From NCBI GenBank assembly GCA_964544225.1, contig CAZIZK010000002.1:141212-205211 (forward strand): a DNA stretch of 64,000 nucleotides, read 5' to 3'. The translations under genes were made by a program, and so were the position numbers. Source of the DNA: an uncultured Candidatus Saccharibacteria bacterium. GTDB taxonomy: Bacteria; Patescibacteriota; Minisyncoccia; Phycocordibacterales; UBA9973. Below the pieces are notes generated by a model. That model saw only the letters and a program-made list of their open reading frames with translations. It had not been told where the DNA came from and made no database searches. Positions 1,701 through 60,505 of the stretch are shown in pieces (the stretch's first letter is position 1; each line of letters starts with the position of its first letter).

Positions 1701-1755
1701 CTGGAAGTTCGACTTCCAGATTTTTATTTTCTTAGACCGTGCTTTAGGCACGGGC
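1701..1755. terminator. tandem hairpins forming a bidirectional terminator between cysS (+) and the histidine kinase (-)
   Basis: ctggaagttcgacttccag followed by a T-run, then ccgtgctttaggcacgg. Perfect inverted repeats. Confidence 0.6.
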
Positions 1756-1760
1756 TGATA

Positions 1761-3440
1761 TTATTTCACACTATCAAGTTCCATCCAGAATGTAGAGCCA
1801 AGGTTTGGGCCTGGTGAGTCTACACCTACATTTCCGTTGTGAGCTTTGGCTATTTCTTTTGCGAGATACAGGCCTAGTCCTGAACCAGAAGAGTTGACCT
1901 TGCCACCTTCACCTCGAGCAAACTTTTGGAACAATGTAGCCTTTACCATTGGTGTCATACCCATGCCAGTATCTTTGATAGCAAAGCGAACTTTACCATC
2001 TACATGACTGAGTCCTACTTCAATACTACCCTCCTTTGTATACTTGATAGAATTGTCGATAAAGTTCAGTGCTACTTGGCGGAGCTTCTCCTTATCGCCG
2101 TGTACATTGTATGGGCCTGTTTTATCATCGGTATATGACAACTTTAGACCCTTCTTCTCGGCAGTTATGGACAAGTCCTTTGCCATGTTGGAAGCAAGTT
2201 CGGTAAAATCGAAATCTATCATCTCATACTTCATACCACCGGACTCGATCTTTGACACACTTAGGAAATCTTCCACCACGATGGCTAGGTTCGAGCTAGA
2301 CTCAAATATACGACTTGCCGCCTCTTTTGCTTTATCATTTATCTTGCCGAAATCTCCATCTACAAGCATTGAAGAGTAACCCTTTATTGCAGTTAGTGGA
2401 CTGCGTAGCTGGTGTGAAGCAAGTGACAGGAACTCGGTCTTTAATTTATCCAATTCTTTCAATTTATCATTTGCATTTTCAAGCTTCATGTTCGTTTCTT
2501 CAAGGCGCATTTTGGAAGCTTCTAGGTCTTTTGACAAGTTTTCAATACGAACACGCTGGTCAGACTCTTTCTTTAGATTTCGGAACAATATAATACTCAA
2601 TACTAAAGTTAATACGATAGTAATGATAGTCAATAATCGGTCGGCATCACCACTGATAAAGAATAGTTGCCCACCCACTAGTACAACAAGTCCAACAACC
2701 AGATAGTGTGTACCTAGTATGTTGAAGTGGAATATATCGAATTCAAATACGGCATAAATAATAGCAAGTAGGAATAGTGGGAGTATAAATAGACTATATA
2801 GATTGATCTCGTATATACCTGTCAGTGATGATATATACTCAGACACACCAAATACTGAAAGGAATAGTATGATACTACCTAGTACTATCAAGTCAGCCTT
2901 CTTATCTTTCTTATCCTGCTTTTTGAAAATAGATTGAACGAAATATATTACTATAGTGATACCAATACCACTCTCTATGAATAACTTGTAGTTATCAAGG
3001 AATGTATTGTTCACAGCCTCGCACACAGACTGGTCGAACCCTAATACGGACTTCTTCATAAGAGTAAATACTAAAGGTACTAGTGTAATACCCACAAAGA
3101 GCATCTTTACCCACTTGGATATATCCCTTTCTCGAACGAATACAAAGGCAAAGTACATAGCCAATACGAAGAACACTATCTCTATGTATAACAAGAATGA
3201 CCATACAGCGTAAACTAAATTGTAGTTACTTGATGTCCAAACTATATAATCACCAACAAGCCATATTGATATAAAAGATACGAATGTAAGAAATATTTTA
3301 GAAAACAGGTTGAACTTTGCCTTAAATGCTACAAATATAGCAAGAAGTAATGAGAGTACAACAGGAATAAGGTGTGAATAAGAAGCGATGACTCGTATAT
3401 CTTGTGTTAAAACATAACATGTATTGATTATTTCATTCAT
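1761..3440 (-). CDS. sensor histidine kinase (multi-TM N-terminal sensor, HisKA + HATPase_c)
   Basis: About 7 hydrophobic helices N-terminal, coiled-coil linker, H-box SHQLRSPLTAIKGY, N/G boxes (NFIDNSIKYT, DTGMGM, GSGLGLYLAKEI). Confidence 0.85.
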   Translation of the reverse strand: MNEIINTCYVLTQDIRVIASYSHLIPVVLSLLLAIFVAFKAKFNLFSKIFLTFVSFISIWLVGDYIVWTSSNYNLVYAVWSFLLYIEIVFFVLAMYFAFVFVRERDISKWVKMLFVGITLVPLVFTLMKKSVLGFDQSVCEAVNNTFLDNYKLFIESGIGITIVIYFVQSIFKKQDKKDKKADLIVLGSIILFLSVFGVSEYISSLTGIYEINLYSLFILPLFLLAIIYAVFEFDIFHFNILGTHYLVVGLVVLVGGQLFFISGDADRLLTIITIVLTLVLSIILFRNLKKESDQRVRIENLSKDLEASKMRLEETNMKLENANDKLKELDKLKTEFLSLASHQLRSPLTAIKGYSSMLVDGDFGKINDKAKEAASRIFESSSNLAIVVEDFLSVSKIESGGMKYEMIDFDFTELASNMAKDLSITAEKKGLKLSYTDDKTGPYNVHGDKEKLRQVALNFIDNSIKYTKEGSIEVGLSHVDGKVRFAIKDTGMGMTPMVKATLFQKFARGEGGKVNSSGSGLGLYLAKEIAKAHNGNVGVDSPGPNLGSTFWMELDSVK

Positions 3441-5686: not shown

Positions 5687-6598
5687 ATGATAGATACAAT
5701 ATTGAGCGCAGGTAAAAATATAGACAAGTCTGATGTGGTGATAGTAAGTGCCGGTTATGAAAAGACAGCAAGTAGCCGTAAAGGTACAGCAAAGGGCCCA
5801 AAGGCTGTTATGAAGATGCTCGATAGCAAGCTCGAGCTCTTTGACCGTAATTTCAAGAAGGAGGCTAGCAAATTTATCGGTATTGCAGCCAAAGACCTAG
5901 GTGATATCAGTAAATTAACTCCCGAAGGTGCATTGAAGAAGATCACGGCTGAATGCGACAAGATAGTGTCCAAAGGTAAGTTCGTATTGTTGCTAGGTGG
6001 TGAGCACTCTGTATCATTAGGCCTATTCCAATCCCTTGCGAAAGTTCACAACCCAAAAGATGTCACAATATTACAAATCGATGCGCACTGTGACCTACGC
6101 GATACTGACGCCGACTACAACCCAAAGCCTACAAAGTATGCGCACTCTTGTGTACTACACCGTGCCACTGACTTACAATACCCACTAGTTCAGGTAGGTA
6201 TCCGCACATATTCAATACACGAATACAAGTATTTCAGTGATCCAAAGAATAATATTACAGTATTTGAATGGGGTAACCCAGACAGTGCCCATGATGTATG
6301 GCAAGCACCAAGTATCGACGAGATACTAGCTTCAATAAAGACAAAGTATGTATATCTAACTATCGATGTAGACGGCTTTGACCCTGCATATATGCCTGGT
6401 ACAGGTACACCTGTCCAAGGGGGCCTAGAGTGGTGGTATGGTGTAGAATTGATCAATAGATTGATAAATGAAAAGGTATTGATAGGTGCCGACATTGTGG
6501 AAGTCTCCCCTATGAAGGATTCCGTCCTTACTGAATACGGCGCAGCCCAGCTAGCGTATAATATAATCACTAATAAGTTCCGAGACAAGTTGAAATAA
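5687..6598 (+). CDS. speB: agmatinase/arginase-family ureohydrolase (likely agmatinase)
   Basis: Mn-binding signature blocks LLLGGEHSVSLG, ILQIDAHCDLRD, LTIDVDGFDPAYMPGTGTPVQGGL. Confidence 0.8.
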   Translation: MIDTILSAGKNIDKSDVVIVSAGYEKTASSRKGTAKGPKAVMKMLDSKLELFDRNFKKEASKFIGIAAKDLGDISKLTPEGALKKITAECDKIVSKGKFVLLLGGEHSVSLGLFQSLAKVHNPKDVTILQIDAHCDLRDTDADYNPKPTKYAHSCVLHRATDLQYPLVQVGIRTYSIHEYKYFSDPKNNITVFEWGNPDSAHDVWQAPSIDEILASIKTKYVYLTIDVDGFDPAYMPGTGTPVQGGLEWWYGVELINRLINEKVLIGADIVEVSPMKDSVLTEYGAAQLAYNIITNKFRDKLK

Positions 6599-6614
6599 GC
6601 ATTATTTGACAGAT

Positions 6615-6652
6615 GTGTATTTTTAGTTTATAAATAAATAAAAATACACATG
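6615..6652. terminator. hairpin (tgtgtattttta...taaaaatacaca) after the agmatinase gene
   Basis: 11-bp perfect inverted repeat with AT-rich loop. Marks the 5' border of an AT-rich cassette. Confidence 0.45.
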
Positions 6653-6653
6653 T

Positions 6654-7202
6654 ATGAAAAAACTATACTTAGCTAAAAGGATACAAAAGAACCCGGATCC
6701 CAGATTTATACTTTCAGTAAATACAAACATGAGCTTGGAAAATGTAATCGAGGCATATGTTGAAAAAATTTATGTCACAAAAAGATACATTTATAATGGC
6801 CCGTGGGTACTAAGAGCACCATTCTATGAAAATGTTTTTGCTGAAAATAATATGCCCCCAGATTTAAAACCTATTAATGTGTGGGAAATGGTCAAACAAA
6901 AAATAGATTCTAGCGATATTTTTATAGGTATAATAAGTGGAAAATCTTATGGAACTATTGCAGAGGTTGGATATGCCTGTAACTCCACTAAAATTGCAGT
7001 ATATGTACTACCTGAAATAAATTTAAGTTATGATGAATTACAAGATTTGTGGTTTGTATTTCAAATGGCATTTAATACAGAAAATTTATGGTTAGATGAG
7101 GATATAAAAAATATAGAAGAATTTAATCATCTAAATATTTTTTCTATTAATGACTATAAATCGTATGTAAGTAAAATAATACCAAATTTTATGAAAAAAT
7201 AA
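6654..7202 (+). CDS. nucleoside 2-deoxyribosyltransferase-like (NDT/Rcl/YtoQ-type Rossmann-like) protein
   Basis: Motif SDIFIGIISGKSYGTIAEVGYACNSTKIAVYVL matches the D...G..sGTa.ElGyA...kpv core of the NDT family, with a conserved Glu in AEVGYA. Very AT-rich gene. Confidence 0.5.
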   Translation: MKKLYLAKRIQKNPDPRFILSVNTNMSLENVIEAYVEKIYVTKRYIYNGPWVLRAPFYENVFAENNMPPDLKPINVWEMVKQKIDSSDIFIGIISGKSYGTIAEVGYACNSTKIAVYVLPEINLSYDELQDLWFVFQMAFNTENLWLDEDIKNIEEFNHLNIFSINDYKSYVSKIIPNFMKK

Positions 7203-7207
7203 AAATC

Positions 7208-7248
7208 AATAAAAACCTTTCTTTTTAAAAAATTGAAAGGTTTTTTTA
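7208..7248. terminator. hairpin aaaaacctttc-N13-gaaaggttttttt between NDT-like and NUDIX genes
   Basis: Perfect 8-bp stem flanked by A-run and T-run. Confidence 0.5.
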
Positions 7249-7271
7249 TTTATGATACAATTACCTTTATA

Positions 7272-7685
7272 ATGAATATACGTATAAACTCTTTAGTTTT
7301 AATTTATAATAAAGAAAAAGTTTTGCTCCAGAAAGGATATGATCATTTTAAAAATATTATTTTTTATAGACCATTAGGAGGAGGTATCGAATTCGGAGAA
7401 AAAGCTGTAGAAGCAGTAAAAAGAGAGATCATGGAAGAAATTGGAGCTACCTTAATAAAGGAAAAATTCCTTACTGTTTTTGAAAATATATTTGAATTTA
7501 ATGGAAATAAATTTCATGAAATAACATTTTTATTTACTGCAGAATTAGCAGAAGAAGAGATGAATAAAAAGAAATTCTTACAAATTTTAGACAAGAAAGG
7601 AGCACAAGCAGAGTGGGTTCTACTATCAGATATAAAAAATGGAGTAGTAAAAATTTTACCAGAAAATTGTATCAATTTTATGTAA
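7272..7685 (+). CDS. NUDIX hydrolase
   Basis: Nudix box GGGIEFGEKAVEAVKREIMEEIGA (GX5EX7REUXEEXGU). The start at 7272 (MNIRINS) is preferred because the 7233 ATG lies inside the upstream hairpin. Confidence 0.8.
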   Translation: MNIRINSLVLIYNKEKVLLQKGYDHFKNIIFYRPLGGGIEFGEKAVEAVKREIMEEIGATLIKEKFLTVFENIFEFNGNKFHEITFLFTAELAEEEMNKKKFLQILDKKGAQAEWVLLSDIKNGVVKILPENCINFM

Positions 7686-7716
7686 AAATACTTAAATTTC
7701 ATTCAGAGTTGAAATT

Positions 7717-7748
7717 AAAAAACACTAGGTCTTGCCTAGTGTTTTTTA
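7717..7748. terminator. bidirectional terminator hairpin cactagg-tcttg-cctagtg with A/T runs
   Basis: Perfect 7-bp stem, A5 upstream and T6 downstream. Lies between the convergent NUDIX and DHS-like genes. Confidence 0.65.
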
Positions 7749-7761
7749 ATTGGTTAGAATT

Positions 7762-8781
7762 TTAGCCTAAATACTGTTGTATTAGTTTGTTAGCCTCGTC
7801 AGGATTTGCCTTCATTTCCAATAGTGCTGTGAGCATTAGTGGGGCTACTATTGTAGCGTCAGATTCCACCACGAACATTGGAGTCTCCTCGGTCAATTTA
7901 TCCCAAGTGATCTTCTCGTTTGGAGTTGCACCGGAATATGAACCATATGATGTTGTAGAGTCAGATATCTGGCAGAAGTATGCCCAAGGCTTTGCCTGTT
8001 GTTCCATATCGTATTTCAGTGATGGAACTACACATATCGGGAAGTCTCCAGCGATACCTCCACCGATCTGGAAGAATCCGATACCCTTGCCCTCGGACAA
8101 TGTCTGATACTGGTCATATAATGCACCCATGTACTCTACACCGCTCTTTGCGATAGTTGCACTACAGTCCCCCATCTTTACGTGTGAAGCAAAGATATTT
8201 CCAAAAGTAGAGTCCTCGTATCCTGGCACCACTATTGGCAAGTTTGCCTGTGCAGCTGCAAGTAGCCAGCATTCATCGGCCTTACCTTCATGATCCTCCT
8301 TGTCTATCTTCTGTATTAATTCGTAGAAATATTCATGCCAGAAACGTCTGTCGCCTTTTGCATCTGCGTCCTTCCACATTGGGACAATAAACTTCTCCAC
8401 CTTGCGGAAAGCCTCATCCTCGGGGATACTAGTGTCTGTAACACGGCGCATACGATCCTCCAATATCTTTGTATCATCTTCTTTTGTAAAGTAACGATAA
8501 TCTGGAAAGTCCTTGTAACTATCATGGGCAACAAGGCGGAAAAGTGATTCCTCCAGGTTCGCACCTGTTACAGACATACCGTGGATAAGGCCTGCGCGGA
8601 TTGCCGGTGCAAGAGTGATACCCATCTGTGCAGAAGACATAGCCCCAGCGACAGCCCAGAACATACGGCCCCCACCTTCTACGTGGCGCCAATACGCTAT
8701 CAATGCATCACGAGTAGCACGAGAGTTAAAGTTCTTATAATTCTTTAAAACAAATTCTAATGTTGGAAGATTTGGATTCAT
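7762..8781 (-). CDS. deoxyhypusine synthase-like protein (bacterial DHS/homospermidine-synthase-like family)
   Basis: MFWAVAGAMSSAQMGITLAPAIRAGLIHGMSVTGANLEESLF aligns with the eukaryotic DHS core [42 protein letters not shown]. Size 339 aa. Confidence 0.7.
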   Translation of the reverse strand: MNPNLPTLEFVLKNYKNFNSRATRDALIAYWRHVEGGGRMFWAVAGAMSSAQMGITLAPAIRAGLIHGMSVTGANLEESLFRLVAHDSYKDFPDYRYFTKEDDTKILEDRMRRVTDTSIPEDEAFRKVEKFIVPMWKDADAKGDRRFWHEYFYELIQKIDKEDHEGKADECWLLAAAQANLPIVVPGYEDSTFGNIFASHVKMGDCSATIAKSGVEYMGALYDQYQTLSEGKGIGFFQIGGGIAGDFPICVVPSLKYDMEQQAKPWAYFCQISDSTTSYGSYSGATPNEKITWDKLTEETPMFVVESDATIVAPLMLTALLEMKANPDEANKLIQQYLG

Positions 8782-8832
8782 AATTTTTAAACTATTAATT
8801 TTATAAATATAAAAACATTATAACATTTTTTA

Positions 8833-8953
8833 AAAATCAAGATATTGCTGTAGATACAAGGCGACGATGAGCATTGCGACCAAAATGTAGACATCTACAT
8901 TGCGGAAGCAAGAGGAGTCGTCAACGCAGTAGGTATAGTAATATCTTGATTTT
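8833..8953 (-). ncRNA. structured intergenic element between speA and the DHS-like gene (candidate regulatory RNA or attenuator)
   Basis: 14-bp perfect outer inverted repeat (aaaatcaagatatt / aatatcttgatttt) enclosing about 90 nt that contain the palindrome atgtagacatctacat and repeated cattgcg motifs. The 176-nt intergenic gap is unusually long for this genome. Confidence 0.35.
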
Positions 8954-8957
8954 TATT

Positions 8958-10340
8958 TTACCAGCCAAAATTCTTGCCCACTTCGTCGGCTGTCTCACGT
9001 TTACGAGCAATAACAATGTGGCCGTTCTCCACTATCAACTTCAATGGTGAAGACAACATGCAGTGGTGTGCTGCTAGTGGGTCTTGGTATGCACCTGTGT
9101 CGAACACGGCTATGTACATCGGGTCGCCACCTTCACTGGAATCATAATCTGGTAATGTTACAGCGCCATCTACGCCTGTATATATGTCGTCACTATCACA
9201 AGATGAACCAGCGAGCCATACATCATTTAACTCGCCATCACGTTTGTTGTTTACTGGTGCCAATGCCCACTTCTGGCCAATAGCCCAAGTGTCTAGCAAG
9301 TCGTTCATAAAGCTTCCGTCTATTACGTACCACTTTTTTGCAGGAGCCTTTTTATTATTTATCGGCTTTGTATCGATAACTTTAAATACAGTTATCTGGG
9401 CAGGGGCTACAATATAGCGACCCCATTCGCAAATCAGGTTTGGGTGCGCAACTCCACGCTTGTCGGCCTCGTCCCTCATTAATTTCAATATCTTATCCAT
9501 TAATTTATCCACTGGATAGCTCTTGTTCCTTGTATACGGTATTGGCATACCACCACCAATGTCGAGTGTGTCGAGTGATGGATTAATCTCCTTTAGTTTA
9601 AAGAATACATCCAGAGCGTATTTAATAGGGCCTAGTACGTCAGACAATTTCTCTATCTGTGAACCTATATGATAATGTAATATTTTTAGATTTTTAAATT
9701 TACCCATTTCCAATATCTCCTTTGCGCCGAACCCAAAACGGTCGATGGGCTTGTTCCAGTACGAATCAGCCTTTACTGGCATGTCTAGGCGTATACCCAC
9801 ATCGTATTTAGAATGCTGTAGGAACTTCAATTCATTTGGCCCTTCGATAAGTGGAAATATCTTCACACCTTTGTGTTGTAGGTCGTCGATGAGGTTTATG
9901 TATTTGTCAGTTTTAGGGCCCGAGCAAAGTATGCGAATATCTGGGTTGAACTTCTCTTGTTCCAACATCTTCTTTATTAGGTACAGATCATTGAAAGATG
10001 AAGTTTCGAGGTGGGCACCCTCACCCACGATACTCATAACAATTTCCTTATTCTGGTTCACCTTCATCGGGTAATGGTAGAAGAACTTGCCTTTGTAGCC
10101 CACCTTCTTTGAAAGTGATGCTGTTAGGTCTAGGAAGTCCTCCAGCCTCTCCTCCACCACGAATGGCAAAAGAATCTCCAGTGATGTACCGAACTTCTCT
10201 GCAAGATATCGAACGTTATAAATATTGTGCCCTTCTTTGATTATCAAGTCACCCTCCTTGCTGTAATCAAAATATTGAGTATTGAACTCGGTAGCCCCAA
10301 GCTTCCAAAGTTTCTTAGAAGCTACTGATTTTTTGGTCAT
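8958..10340 (-). CDS. speA: biosynthetic arginine decarboxylase, SpeA-type (PLP fold-III decarboxylase), short form
   Basis: YPMKVNQ (SpeA-type PIKVNQ PLP-lysine motif rather than the ODC/LysA YAVKxN), YHIGSQ, LDIGGGMPIPY, EWGRYIVAPA, SSCDSDD substrate-loop Cys. 460 aa. Confidence 0.75.
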   Translation of the reverse strand: MTKKSVASKKLWKLGATEFNTQYFDYSKEGDLIIKEGHNIYNVRYLAEKFGTSLEILLPFVVEERLEDFLDLTASLSKKVGYKGKFFYHYPMKVNQNKEIVMSIVGEGAHLETSSFNDLYLIKKMLEQEKFNPDIRILCSGPKTDKYINLIDDLQHKGVKIFPLIEGPNELKFLQHSKYDVGIRLDMPVKADSYWNKPIDRFGFGAKEILEMGKFKNLKILHYHIGSQIEKLSDVLGPIKYALDVFFKLKEINPSLDTLDIGGGMPIPYTRNKSYPVDKLMDKILKLMRDEADKRGVAHPNLICEWGRYIVAPAQITVFKVIDTKPINNKKAPAKKWYVIDGSFMNDLLDTWAIGQKWALAPVNNKRDGELNDVWLAGSSCDSDDIYTGVDGAVTLPDYDSSEGGDPMYIAVFDTGAYQDPLAAHHCMLSSPLKLIVENGHIVIARKRETADEVGKNFGW

Positions 10341-54081: not shown

Positions 54082-54133
54082 AAAAAACACTGAAATAGTA
54101 TACCACTTTTTACAAAAAATGCAAAAATTAAGG

Positions 54134-59301: not shown

Positions 59302-59811
59302 ATGACAAAAAAGAAATCATTTTTTGAAAGACTCACAGGTGGTATGCGCATGGATGATGAAGAAGAAGTGGATGAATCAGTCACTACAAAACGTGGCTCT
59401 ACTATAGCGAATCTTCACACAAAGAACCCTATTATAAAAGGCATGGATGCCGATGAAGAGTCTACTGAGGTGGAAGACGAGGAAGGCCAGCTAACAGTCG
59501 ATGTATACCAAACAGCCAATGAAATAGTGGTTCAGACTATGGTAGCAGGGGTTGAACCTCAGCACCTATCAGTAACTATCACACACGAGATGATCACTAT
59601 CCGTGGCAAGCGCGAGGCTCCTCGTGGTATCGATGAAGACAAATACATTACTCGCGAACTTTATTGGGGTTCATTCTCACGAACTATCGAGTTCCCCCAG
59701 GAAATAGAGCCCGATGAAGCCGAAGCAGTGGAAAAGAATGGATTGCTAACTATCAAACTCCCTATCATAAACAAACAAAAGCAAACAGTTCTAAAAGTAA
59801 AATCATTCTAA
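59302..59811 (+). CDS. Hsp20/alpha-crystallin family small heat shock protein
   Basis: Alpha-crystallin domain (LTVDVYQTANEIVVQTMVAGVEPQHLSVTITHEMITIRGKRE...LLTIKLPI), acidic N-terminal region. Confidence 0.8.
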   Translation: MTKKKSFFERLTGGMRMDDEEEVDESVTTKRGSTIANLHTKNPIIKGMDADEESTEVEDEEGQLTVDVYQTANEIVVQTMVAGVEPQHLSVTITHEMITIRGKREAPRGIDEDKYITRELYWGSFSRTIEFPQEIEPDEAEAVEKNGLLTIKLPIINKQKQTVLKVKSF

Positions 59812-59815
59812 ACAA

Positions 59816-59841
59816 AAAGCTCCCATACGGGAGCTTTTTGT
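59816..59841. terminator. bidirectional terminator gctccc-atac-gggagc with A/T runs
   Basis: aaaaagctcccatacgggagcttttt. Confidence 0.65.
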
Positions 59842-59859
59842 TTATTAGTTATTTTTTTG

Positions 59860-59932: not shown

Positions 59933-60078
59933 ATTTTGTAAACCATTTATCTTTAATTTAAAGTGCGTGTCGCGTTATCCCTACCAAAACAGCTACCTGA
60001 ACAAATTGTTTAAAACCATTTATCTTTAATTTAAAGTGCGTGTCGCGTTATCCCTACCAAAACAGCTACCCGAGCGAT
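59933..60078 (-). repeat. two tandem 73-bp direct repeats derived from the tRNA-Phe 5' end
   Basis: 57-nt identical core at 59941-59997 and 60014-60070, period 73 bp (the tRNA length). Each unit begins (minus strand) with about 22 nt matching the tRNA-Phe 5' end (GCUCGGGUAGCU...UUGGUAG), then diverges into non-tRNA sequence. Confidence 0.7.
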
Positions 60079-60374
60079 TAATTCTGAATTTGATTCAACA
60101 ATTCTTGCAAATGTTTAACATCTGGAACAGAGTTACTAACCTTCTTTAGAGTATCTACATCATCGCTTACACCATTATAATAAGACAAAAGACCGTCTAT
60201 ATATGGCTGTATAAAGTAGTATGCACCAAATGAGATTCCAAGTATTATAATCCAATAAAATACTCGGTATATCTGGGTCCATCGCTGGATACGAAGCATC
60301 TTGCGAAGCATATCATTGTTATCCTTCGATAAACGAAGGTTTTCTTGTAGCATCTTTTTTACTTCAGGATCCAT
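60078..60374 (-). CDS. hypothetical small membrane protein (98 aa)
   Basis: Single TM (IYRVFYWIIILGISFGAYYFI). Stop codon 4 nt from the tRNA-derived repeat. Confidence 0.4.
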   Translation of the reverse strand: MDPEVKKMLQENLRLSKDNNDMLRKMLRIQRWTQIYRVFYWIIILGISFGAYYFIQPYIDGLLSYYNGVSDDVDTLKKVSNSVPDVKHLQELLNQIQN

Positions 60375-60433
60375 AGACAGATATTAGCATAAAAGCCTAT
60401 AAAAATAAAGGTGCCCTCACTTGCTTTATAATG

Positions 60434-60505
60434 TGCCCTCGTCAGGAGTCGAACCTGAATCAGCTCGTTAGGAGTGAGCCGTTCTATCCATTGAACTACG
60501 AGGGC
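60434..60505 (-). tRNA. tRNA-Arg (anticodon CCU)
   Basis: Manually folded: acceptor GCCCUCG/CGAGGGC, D-arm GUUC-AAUGGAUA-GAAC, anticodon loop CUCCUAA (A-C mismatch closing the stem), T-arm UCAGG-UUCGACU-CCUGA. 72 nt. Isotype is less certain than for the other three. Confidence 0.65.

Follow-up and report, generated by a model that had tools for sequence, protein, structure and literature searches.

In the 64-kb stretch of DNA analysed here (the window), an intact tRNA-Phe gene is directly preceded by two short tandem units, each of which begins with a piece of the tRNA sequence itself. The minus-strand order is a Grx gene, tRNA-Arg(CCU) (60433-60505), a 98-aa gene (60374-60078), the two units, tRNA-Phe (59932-59860) and a terminator (59844-59809), and the neighbours ValS, PrsW, Hsp20, Grx, DivIC and LepA are housekeeping genes. 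Protein relatives carry the labels Nomurabacteria or Paceibacterota, and the host lies within Patescibacteria. A terminator between the 98-aa gene and tRNA-Phe was not found; therefore, the two genes probably share one transcript, in which the units would also lie. The features of the locus are as follows.

59809-59844, bidirectional: terminator hairpin common to tRNA-Phe and the convergent Hsp20 gene (terminator scan)
59859/59860-59932, minus strand: intact tRNA-Phe(GAA), CCA not encoded (ARAGORN; Rfam RF00005, 65.2 bits)
59933-59939, minus strand: proximal linker ACAAAAT, from the unit to tRNA-Phe, varying among copies and species (sequence comparison)
59940-59990, minus strand: proximal conserved 51-nt body (unit positions 13-63), consisting of GTTTTGGTAG and the 41-nt core; 0/51 differences from the distal body, 48/51 identical to the second species, L017
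59991-60002, minus strand: proximal head GTTCAGGTAGCT, a mutated version of tRNA positions 1-12 (10/12; tRNA comparison)
60003-60012, minus strand: inter-unit linker TAAACAATTT, resembling the L017 unit-to-tRNA linker TAAGCAATTT (species comparison)
60013-60063, minus strand: distal conserved 51-nt body (repeat search and L017 comparison)
60064-60075, minus strand: distal head GCTCGGGTAGCT, exactly tRNA positions 1-12, at the site of the tRNA 5' end in array-less relatives (species comparison)
60078-60374, minus strand: 98-aa gene directly upstream of the array, without a Pfam family (ORF and domain search)

A repeat search of the window returned the direct pair 59940-60000 and 60013-60073, which is 61 nt long with 98% identity and 73-bp spacing, and the spacing from repeat to tRNA-Phe is 70 bp. 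Read in tRNA orientation, the order is TAA-TC-GCTCGGGTAGCT GTTTTGGTAG GGATAACGCGACACGCACTTTAAATTAAAGATAAATGGTTT-TAAACAATTT-GTTCAGGTAGCT GTTTTGGTAG, followed by an identical 41-nt core, ACAAAAT and tRNA-Phe. The 41-nt core, GGATAACGCGACACGCACTTTAAATTAAAGATAAATGGTTT, is present in exactly two copies in the 64-kb window, against 0 expected from shuffles. The distal 22-nt head, GCTCGGGTAGCTGTTTTGGTAG (60054-60075), matches tRNA-Phe positions 1-22 at 19/22 nucleotides, and the proximal 22-nt head, beginning GTTCAGGTAGCT (59981-60002), at 17/22; over positions 1-12 the scores are 12/12 and 10/12, respectively, and positions 13-22 match at 7/10, with an in-register chance of ~0.01. After position 22, in-register identity to tRNA-Phe falls to chance level (13/51 and 11/48). 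These data bear out the first-pass annotation, which had described two near-identical direct repeats with a 73-bp period upstream of an intact tRNA-Phe(GAA), each starting with ~22 nt of tRNA-like sequence, with a perfect GCUCGGG in the distal copy and a mutated version in the proximal one, before giving way to unrelated AT-rich sequence; its claim of a 4-nt gap after the stop codon of the 98-aa gene needs correction, as the distal head begins 2 nt (TC) after the TAA (60080-60078). Tandem Repeats Finder did not report the array because there are only two copies, and an inverted repeat bounding the unit was not found in the repeat search, so that the unit lacks the terminal inverted repeats of a MITE.

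The array is not an assembly artefact. The same architecture is present in an independent MAG of another species (L017), and Logan contigs from two other samples (L001 and L002) both stop at ...GGATAACGCGACA, the last 31-mer that differs between the copies, which is where a de Bruijn graph branching at the repeat would be expected to stop. Logan contigs of closely related strains (L005, L013, L014-L016, L018 and L021) all break within or beside tRNA-Phe and therefore do not read through the array. Such repeats break short-read assemblies at tRNA loci, as the Logan contigs show.

Orthologous loci were recovered from several lineages with the 98-aa protein and Hsp20 as anchors, and the gene order around tRNA-Phe is kept across all of them. 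L017 (GCA_964639185.1), whose ValS, Hsp20 and 98-aa protein are 85%, 75% and 69% identical to those of the window, carries an orthologous two-unit array at the same site and in the same gene order, reading TAA-TTTTTTTAAAAAGCAT-GTTCGGGTAGTT GTTTTGGTAG GTATAACGCGACACGCACTTTAAATAAAAGATAGATGGTTT-TCATGTTT-GCTCAAGTAGCT, an identical body, TAAGCAATTT and tRNA-Phe. The array is absent from the congeners L003 and L004 (98-aa protein 77-78% identical) and from the outgroups L024 (52%) and L006-L012 (47%), and in all these array-less lineages (L003, L004, L006-L012 and L024) tRNA-Phe follows the upstream stop codon after 14-25 nt. In L017 the distal head is preceded by the leader TTTTTTTAAAAAGCAT, which is similar to the leader ATTTTTTAAAAAAT that precedes tRNA-Phe in L004; therefore, the distal head stands at the original tRNA-Phe 5' end, and the extra DNA behaves like an insertion behind nucleotides 12-22 of the tRNA, with regeneration of the gene.

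The window and L017 do not group together within the genus. Quartet counts favoured L015 with L017 (16) over the window with L015 (8) or with L017 (7), and by four-point sums from distance matrices the window and L017 are not sisters either; therefore, the array was either ancestral to the genus, with one or two losses, or has moved between lineages. All four heads (window and L017) share a change of CAG to GTT at positions 13-15, which argues that they stem from one ancestral unit by tandem duplication and not from separate integrations. In addition, the TAAACAATTT/TAAGCAATTT linker lies between the units in the window and between unit and tRNA in L017, a register shift that is expected of unequal exchange.

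The different parts of the unit have diverged to very different extents. The 51-nt body (unit positions 13-63) is identical at 48/51 positions between the window and L017, compared with 58-69% identity at third codon positions, and this conservation has P<=2e-5 at an assumed neutral identity of 0.70. Other intergenic stretches, which are probably functional, are 75-91% identical between the two species, and therefore the body's 94% is high, at the top of the range, yet not unique. Within each genome the two bodies show 0/51 differences, whereas the heads differ at 2/12 positions in the window and 4/12 in L017 (Fisher 0.03 and 0.0008, respectively, for head versus body divergence), and the linkers vary in sequence and length. 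All six head changes are C:G->T:A transitions, and the body's 18 G/C positions are unchanged. The three body differences between the species occur in both copies and therefore require gene conversion or re-duplication, and the constraint argument rests on few substitutions because only two species carry the array. The heads (positions 1-12) appear to be dead and decaying by C:G->T:A changes, with the bodies being kept identical. Since the bodies are identical within genomes and near-identical between species, they are probably constrained, and the 51-nt body is probably a putative sequence-specific cis element that would act on DNA or on unstructured RNA.

With moderate confidence, we regard the array as a two-copy tandem repeat confined to this locus, in the spacer that separates the 98-aa gene from tRNA-Phe; it may have arisen by duplicative insertion into the 5' part of tRNA-Phe and then unequal crossing-over. 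The ancestor would have had tRNA-Phe after the gene via a 14-25-nt A/T-rich leader, an arrangement that four related lineages still show. Unrelated DNA of about 60 nt would have been inserted into the 5' part of tRNA-Phe, after nucleotides 12-22, and this event would have duplicated the first 12-22 nt of the tRNA, leaving an intact gene regenerated downstream and the original 5' end stranded upstream. The stranded fragment and the 5' end of the tRNA would then have undergone unequal crossing-over, giving the order head-body-head-body-tRNA. The reciprocal product would be a precise loss that returns the locus to the ancestral leader-tRNA junction, as found in L003 and L004, and this would explain the array-less congeners. 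Today, the heads would be dead, decaying relics and the bodies apparently constrained. The architecture, the orthologous array of L017, the empty sites, the difference in conservation and the absence of tRNA identity or RNA structure are observations, whereas we infer the history of insertion and unequal crossing-over, the joint transcription with the upstream gene and any function of the units.

The best candidate for the agent of the first insertion is an integrative element with an attP that restored the 5' end, which was later deleted; such an element is favoured because the neighbourhood shows repeated tRNA-end duplications (in L004, in L014 and at the tRNA-Arg of the window and L003). 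Against an integrative agent, no donor or phage match was found, nor an integrase among the window ORFs screened, and 5'-side duplication is atypical for tRNA-targeting elements. The array is a variant of the known tRNA-fragment repeats beside tRNA genes, and its unusual properties are its 5'-side position, its tandem arrangement and its conservation. Some genomic islands, such as those with dusA-specific integrases (PMC4482086), insert at a gene's 5' end and rebuild that gene. Like those islands, the array would be an insertion near the 5' end of its target, where the incoming DNA provides a replacement; unlike the array, the islands have protein-coding targets, are multi-kilobase and carry an adjacent integrase. 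The 178-bp tandem repeats distal to E. coli tyrT each contain the 3'-terminal nucleotides of tRNA-Tyr and are attributed to unequal recombination. They are likewise tandem units beside a tRNA gene that join a terminal tRNA fragment to unrelated sequence, but their units are longer and are found 3' of the gene, in another organism. CIMEs are kilobase-scale, are bounded by functional att sites, lack recombination genes and can accumulate in tandem. The array resembles CIME remnants in being short att-bounded DNA without recombination genes, in tandem at one site; CIMEs differ in their kilobase scale and functional att sites, whereas any recombination at the repeats of the array would be hypothetical.

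In sum, the array is real: a tandem footprint beside a tRNA gene that is restricted to one lineage and local, in two species and at one locus. If the proposed history is true, tRNA genes in streamlined Patescibacteria can be struck from the 5' side with regeneration of the gene, and such footprints can be amplified, precisely lost and possibly put to use. They would then mark past mobile-element activity in a phylum with few such elements documented, and a 5'-restoring insertion into a bacterial tRNA gene would mirror the att duplication that usually affects the 3' end. The array is of modest interest unless the body turns out to be functional or the footprint records a 5'-restoring integration of a new kind; the body, conserved over 51 nt, offers a small candidate cis element that can be tested.

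Alternatively, the units could be neutral scars of one or two elements that integrated at tRNA-Phe and were nearly fully deleted, leaving attL-like joints, with the conservation reflecting a recent horizontal arrival; we consider this unlikely. Elements targeting tRNA genes usually carry the tRNA 3' fragment. The duplication of att sites at tRNA genes by integrative elements leaves direct repeats of tRNA gene fragments (PMC7192596). Leftover att duplications had been suggested in the first-pass annotation, and part of that suggestion stands: the array holds a partial tRNA copy (the 12-22-nt heads) in direct orientation beside an intact, regenerated tRNA, the site is uninterrupted in relatives (L003, L004, L006 and L024), the distal fragment lies at the original 5' end, the distribution is patchy and discordant with the phylogeny, classic 3'-side tRNA fragments occur in relatives (L004 and L014), and the 3' end of tRNA-Arg is duplicated in both the window and L003. 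Other evidence speaks against it, as what is repeated is the 5' end of the tRNA (positions 1-22) and not the usual 3' portion, and only 51-61 nt lie between the repeats in place of at least 2 kb of element-sized DNA with an integrase. Unlike att duplications, the unit is tandem and its body is conserved between species. Independent events would hardly have left the same deletion end-points in both units and both species, the common CAG->GTT change makes the heads paralogous to one copy, and the heads and linkers have diverged whereas the bodies have not.

The search for a mobile source bears on the same point. Of the window's ORFs, 30 were screened (28 with 250-480 aa and two shorter), and none hit an integrase or transposase family, in agreement with the earlier remark that no integrase is present now. 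A blastn-short search with the unit across the window and every recovered locus yielded matches no longer than 16 nt, at chance level, and phage and plasmid collections returned nothing beyond chance in blastn (E>=0.04). Core and junction patterns are absent from IMG/VR, as are the halves of this tRNA-Phe. Among GTDB species-representative genomes, the 21-mer ATAACGCGACACGCACTTTAA occurs in one only, twice, both times at the tRNA-Phe locus, so the core is not a common dispersed repeat; a search of JGI metagenomes did not find the overlapping 20-mer TAACGCGACACGCACTTTAA. The junction pattern GCTGTTTTGGTAGGNATAACG has one JGI match, at L023 914-934, within the part of a 415-aa ORF that encodes its signal peptide; this match, inside a CDS and away from any tRNA, was judged to be chance. 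A dispersed repeat or MITE was rejected, as the core occurs just twice in the window, is locus-bound in GTDB and lacks terminal inverted repeats.

Returning to the history of insertion and unequal crossing-over, a fuller version of it would make the body a selectively maintained, sequence-specific cis element, such as a binding site for a protein that controls how the 98-aa gene and tRNA-Phe are transcribed or processed; the body would have entered by a 5'-restoring insertion and would be spreading or disappearing among congeners via recombination at the heads. We regard this complete scenario as rather doubtful. No promoter, operator or RNA motif was recognised in the units, which are A/T-rich with a GC-rich centre and unstructured.

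It is also quite improbable, in our estimate, that the units form a tandem promoter or upstream-activating module supplying transcription signals to tRNA-Phe. Tandem promoters and upstream activating sequences occur in stable-RNA operons, and the position directly upstream of tRNA-Phe, a conservation on par with that of other regulatory spacers and the unstructured, A/T-rich composition around a GC-rich centre would all suit such a module; moreover, an insertion that severed the tRNA from upstream transcription would presumably need its own promoter. However, a consensus scan found no sigma-70-type site in the units, and the weighted scan reached a maximum of 5.6 in tRNA orientation and 6.0-6.2 in the opposite one, which is background density (scores of at least 6.0 occur ~3.9 times per kb per strand in the genome), compared with 6.9 for the genome's own tRNA-Glu promoter (TTGCAT-N16/17-TGgTATACT) as a control. 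The candidate hexamers are either partly within the variable linkers or missing from L017, and the relatives do without any such module.

Several other functional readings were considered. A replication origin with DnaA boxes was rejected, since TTATCCCTA matches at only 7/9, consensus boxes do not cluster and the skew shows no inflection around 60 kb. CIRCE and HAIR heat-shock operators, sigma-54 -24/-12 elements, boxA and dif gave partial matches by eye that are unconserved in L017. Small ORFs starting from the conserved ATGGTTT run for 7-19 codons, inconsistent in length and sequence, and were judged non-coding.

A small RNA or structured leader, either in the sense direction or as a plus-strand antisense to the tRNA 5' end or the 98-aa mRNA, is very improbable. 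Each unit does contain a weak plus-strand (TTGTAA/TTTAAA)-N17-TAAAGT followed by a GC-rich stretch, with TAAAGT kept in L017, and a terminator-like plus-strand hairpin lies at 60323-60339; the -35 positions, however, fall within non-conserved linkers, and the promoter scores are at genome background. Folding of the units, of the pair on either strand and of the full leader with the tRNA gave z-scores of +0.5 to +1.9 against dinucleotide shuffles, with the units folding worse than shuffles on both strands (z +0.6 to +1.9), and therefore there is no RNA structure in the units. Together with the lack of any Rfam match at E<=10, these values do not support the tRNA-5'-leader-like small RNA that had been raised at first. 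The other early suggestion, that the units are decayed tandem duplicates of the whole tRNA-Phe gene, is effectively refuted by the sequence, since in spite of the 70-73-bp period near tRNA length and the tRNA-like first 22 nt, identity collapses from 19/22 to 13/51 at position 23 (Fisher 1.6e-6), local gapped alignment of the remainder to tRNA-Phe is equalled or beaten by 1675/2000 shuffles, the remainder is conserved between species instead of decaying, and the units are not scored as tRNA or pseudo-tRNA by ARAGORN, which found only 4 true tRNAs in the window and none in the units, or by Infernal, where cmscan against Rfam at E<=10 gave no tRNA or other match in 59933-60078 and the whole-window Rfam scan gave four tRNAs only.

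Other tRNA ends at these loci show rearrangements of their own. In L004, a pseudo-copy of the tRNA-Phe 3' half (anticodon loop to 3' end) lies directly after tRNA-Phe at 786-827; it contains blocks of 16 and 20 nt identical to tRNA-Phe with a rewritten T-arm between them, a mosaic and not random decay. In L014 (~1701-1800, minus strand), the 29-nt segment of tRNA-Phe from T-loop to 3' flank, TTCGACCCTGGTCCCGAGCACAAAATATA, is repeated 42 nt apart, resembling an att-type 3' duplication; the contig starts inside the first 29-nt copy. The window itself contains a second miniature tRNA-end duplication in the same operon, at 60411-60440 (minus strand), where the 3' end of tRNA-Arg(CCU) is repeated 14 nt downstream as GAGGGCAC-ATTATAAAGCAAGT-GAGGGCAC, that is, 8 nt duplicated around a 14-nt filler. 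A similar 22-nt insertion follows tRNA-Arg in L003, and L004 and L017 are without it. On the other side of tRNA-Phe, the terminator hairpins towards Hsp20 differ among L013 (4511-4559), L021 (1356-1425) and the window (59809-59844), in strains whose Hsp20 is 97-99% identical to that of the window; thus, the DNA just downstream of tRNA-Phe has been replaced at strain level.

The 98-aa gene has two further peculiarities. The hairpin at 60323-60339 has a 6-bp stem within the coding sequence, is terminator-like on the plus strand and is retained in L017 via a double change of G-C to A-T that alters two codons. The last 24 nt of the gene (60078-60101) are identical in L017, and 8 of the last 9 third codon positions match there, despite the 98-aa protein being the most divergent protein pair in the genus; this identity could reflect an embedded signal or a recombination tract. 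Elsewhere in the window, the near-consensus promoter TTGCAT-N16/17-TGgTATACT lies at 54097-54124 (minus strand), between tRNA-Val and tRNA-Glu, and tRNA-Val begins only 6 nt past the stop codon of an upstream 191-aa ORF, a guanylate kinase by its L017 counterpart; tRNAs in this genome are often packed straight behind protein genes. Finally, a cluster of arginase-family, deoxyhypusine-synthase-like and Orn/Arg decarboxylase-like genes occupies 5687-10340 in this reduced Patescibacteria genome.
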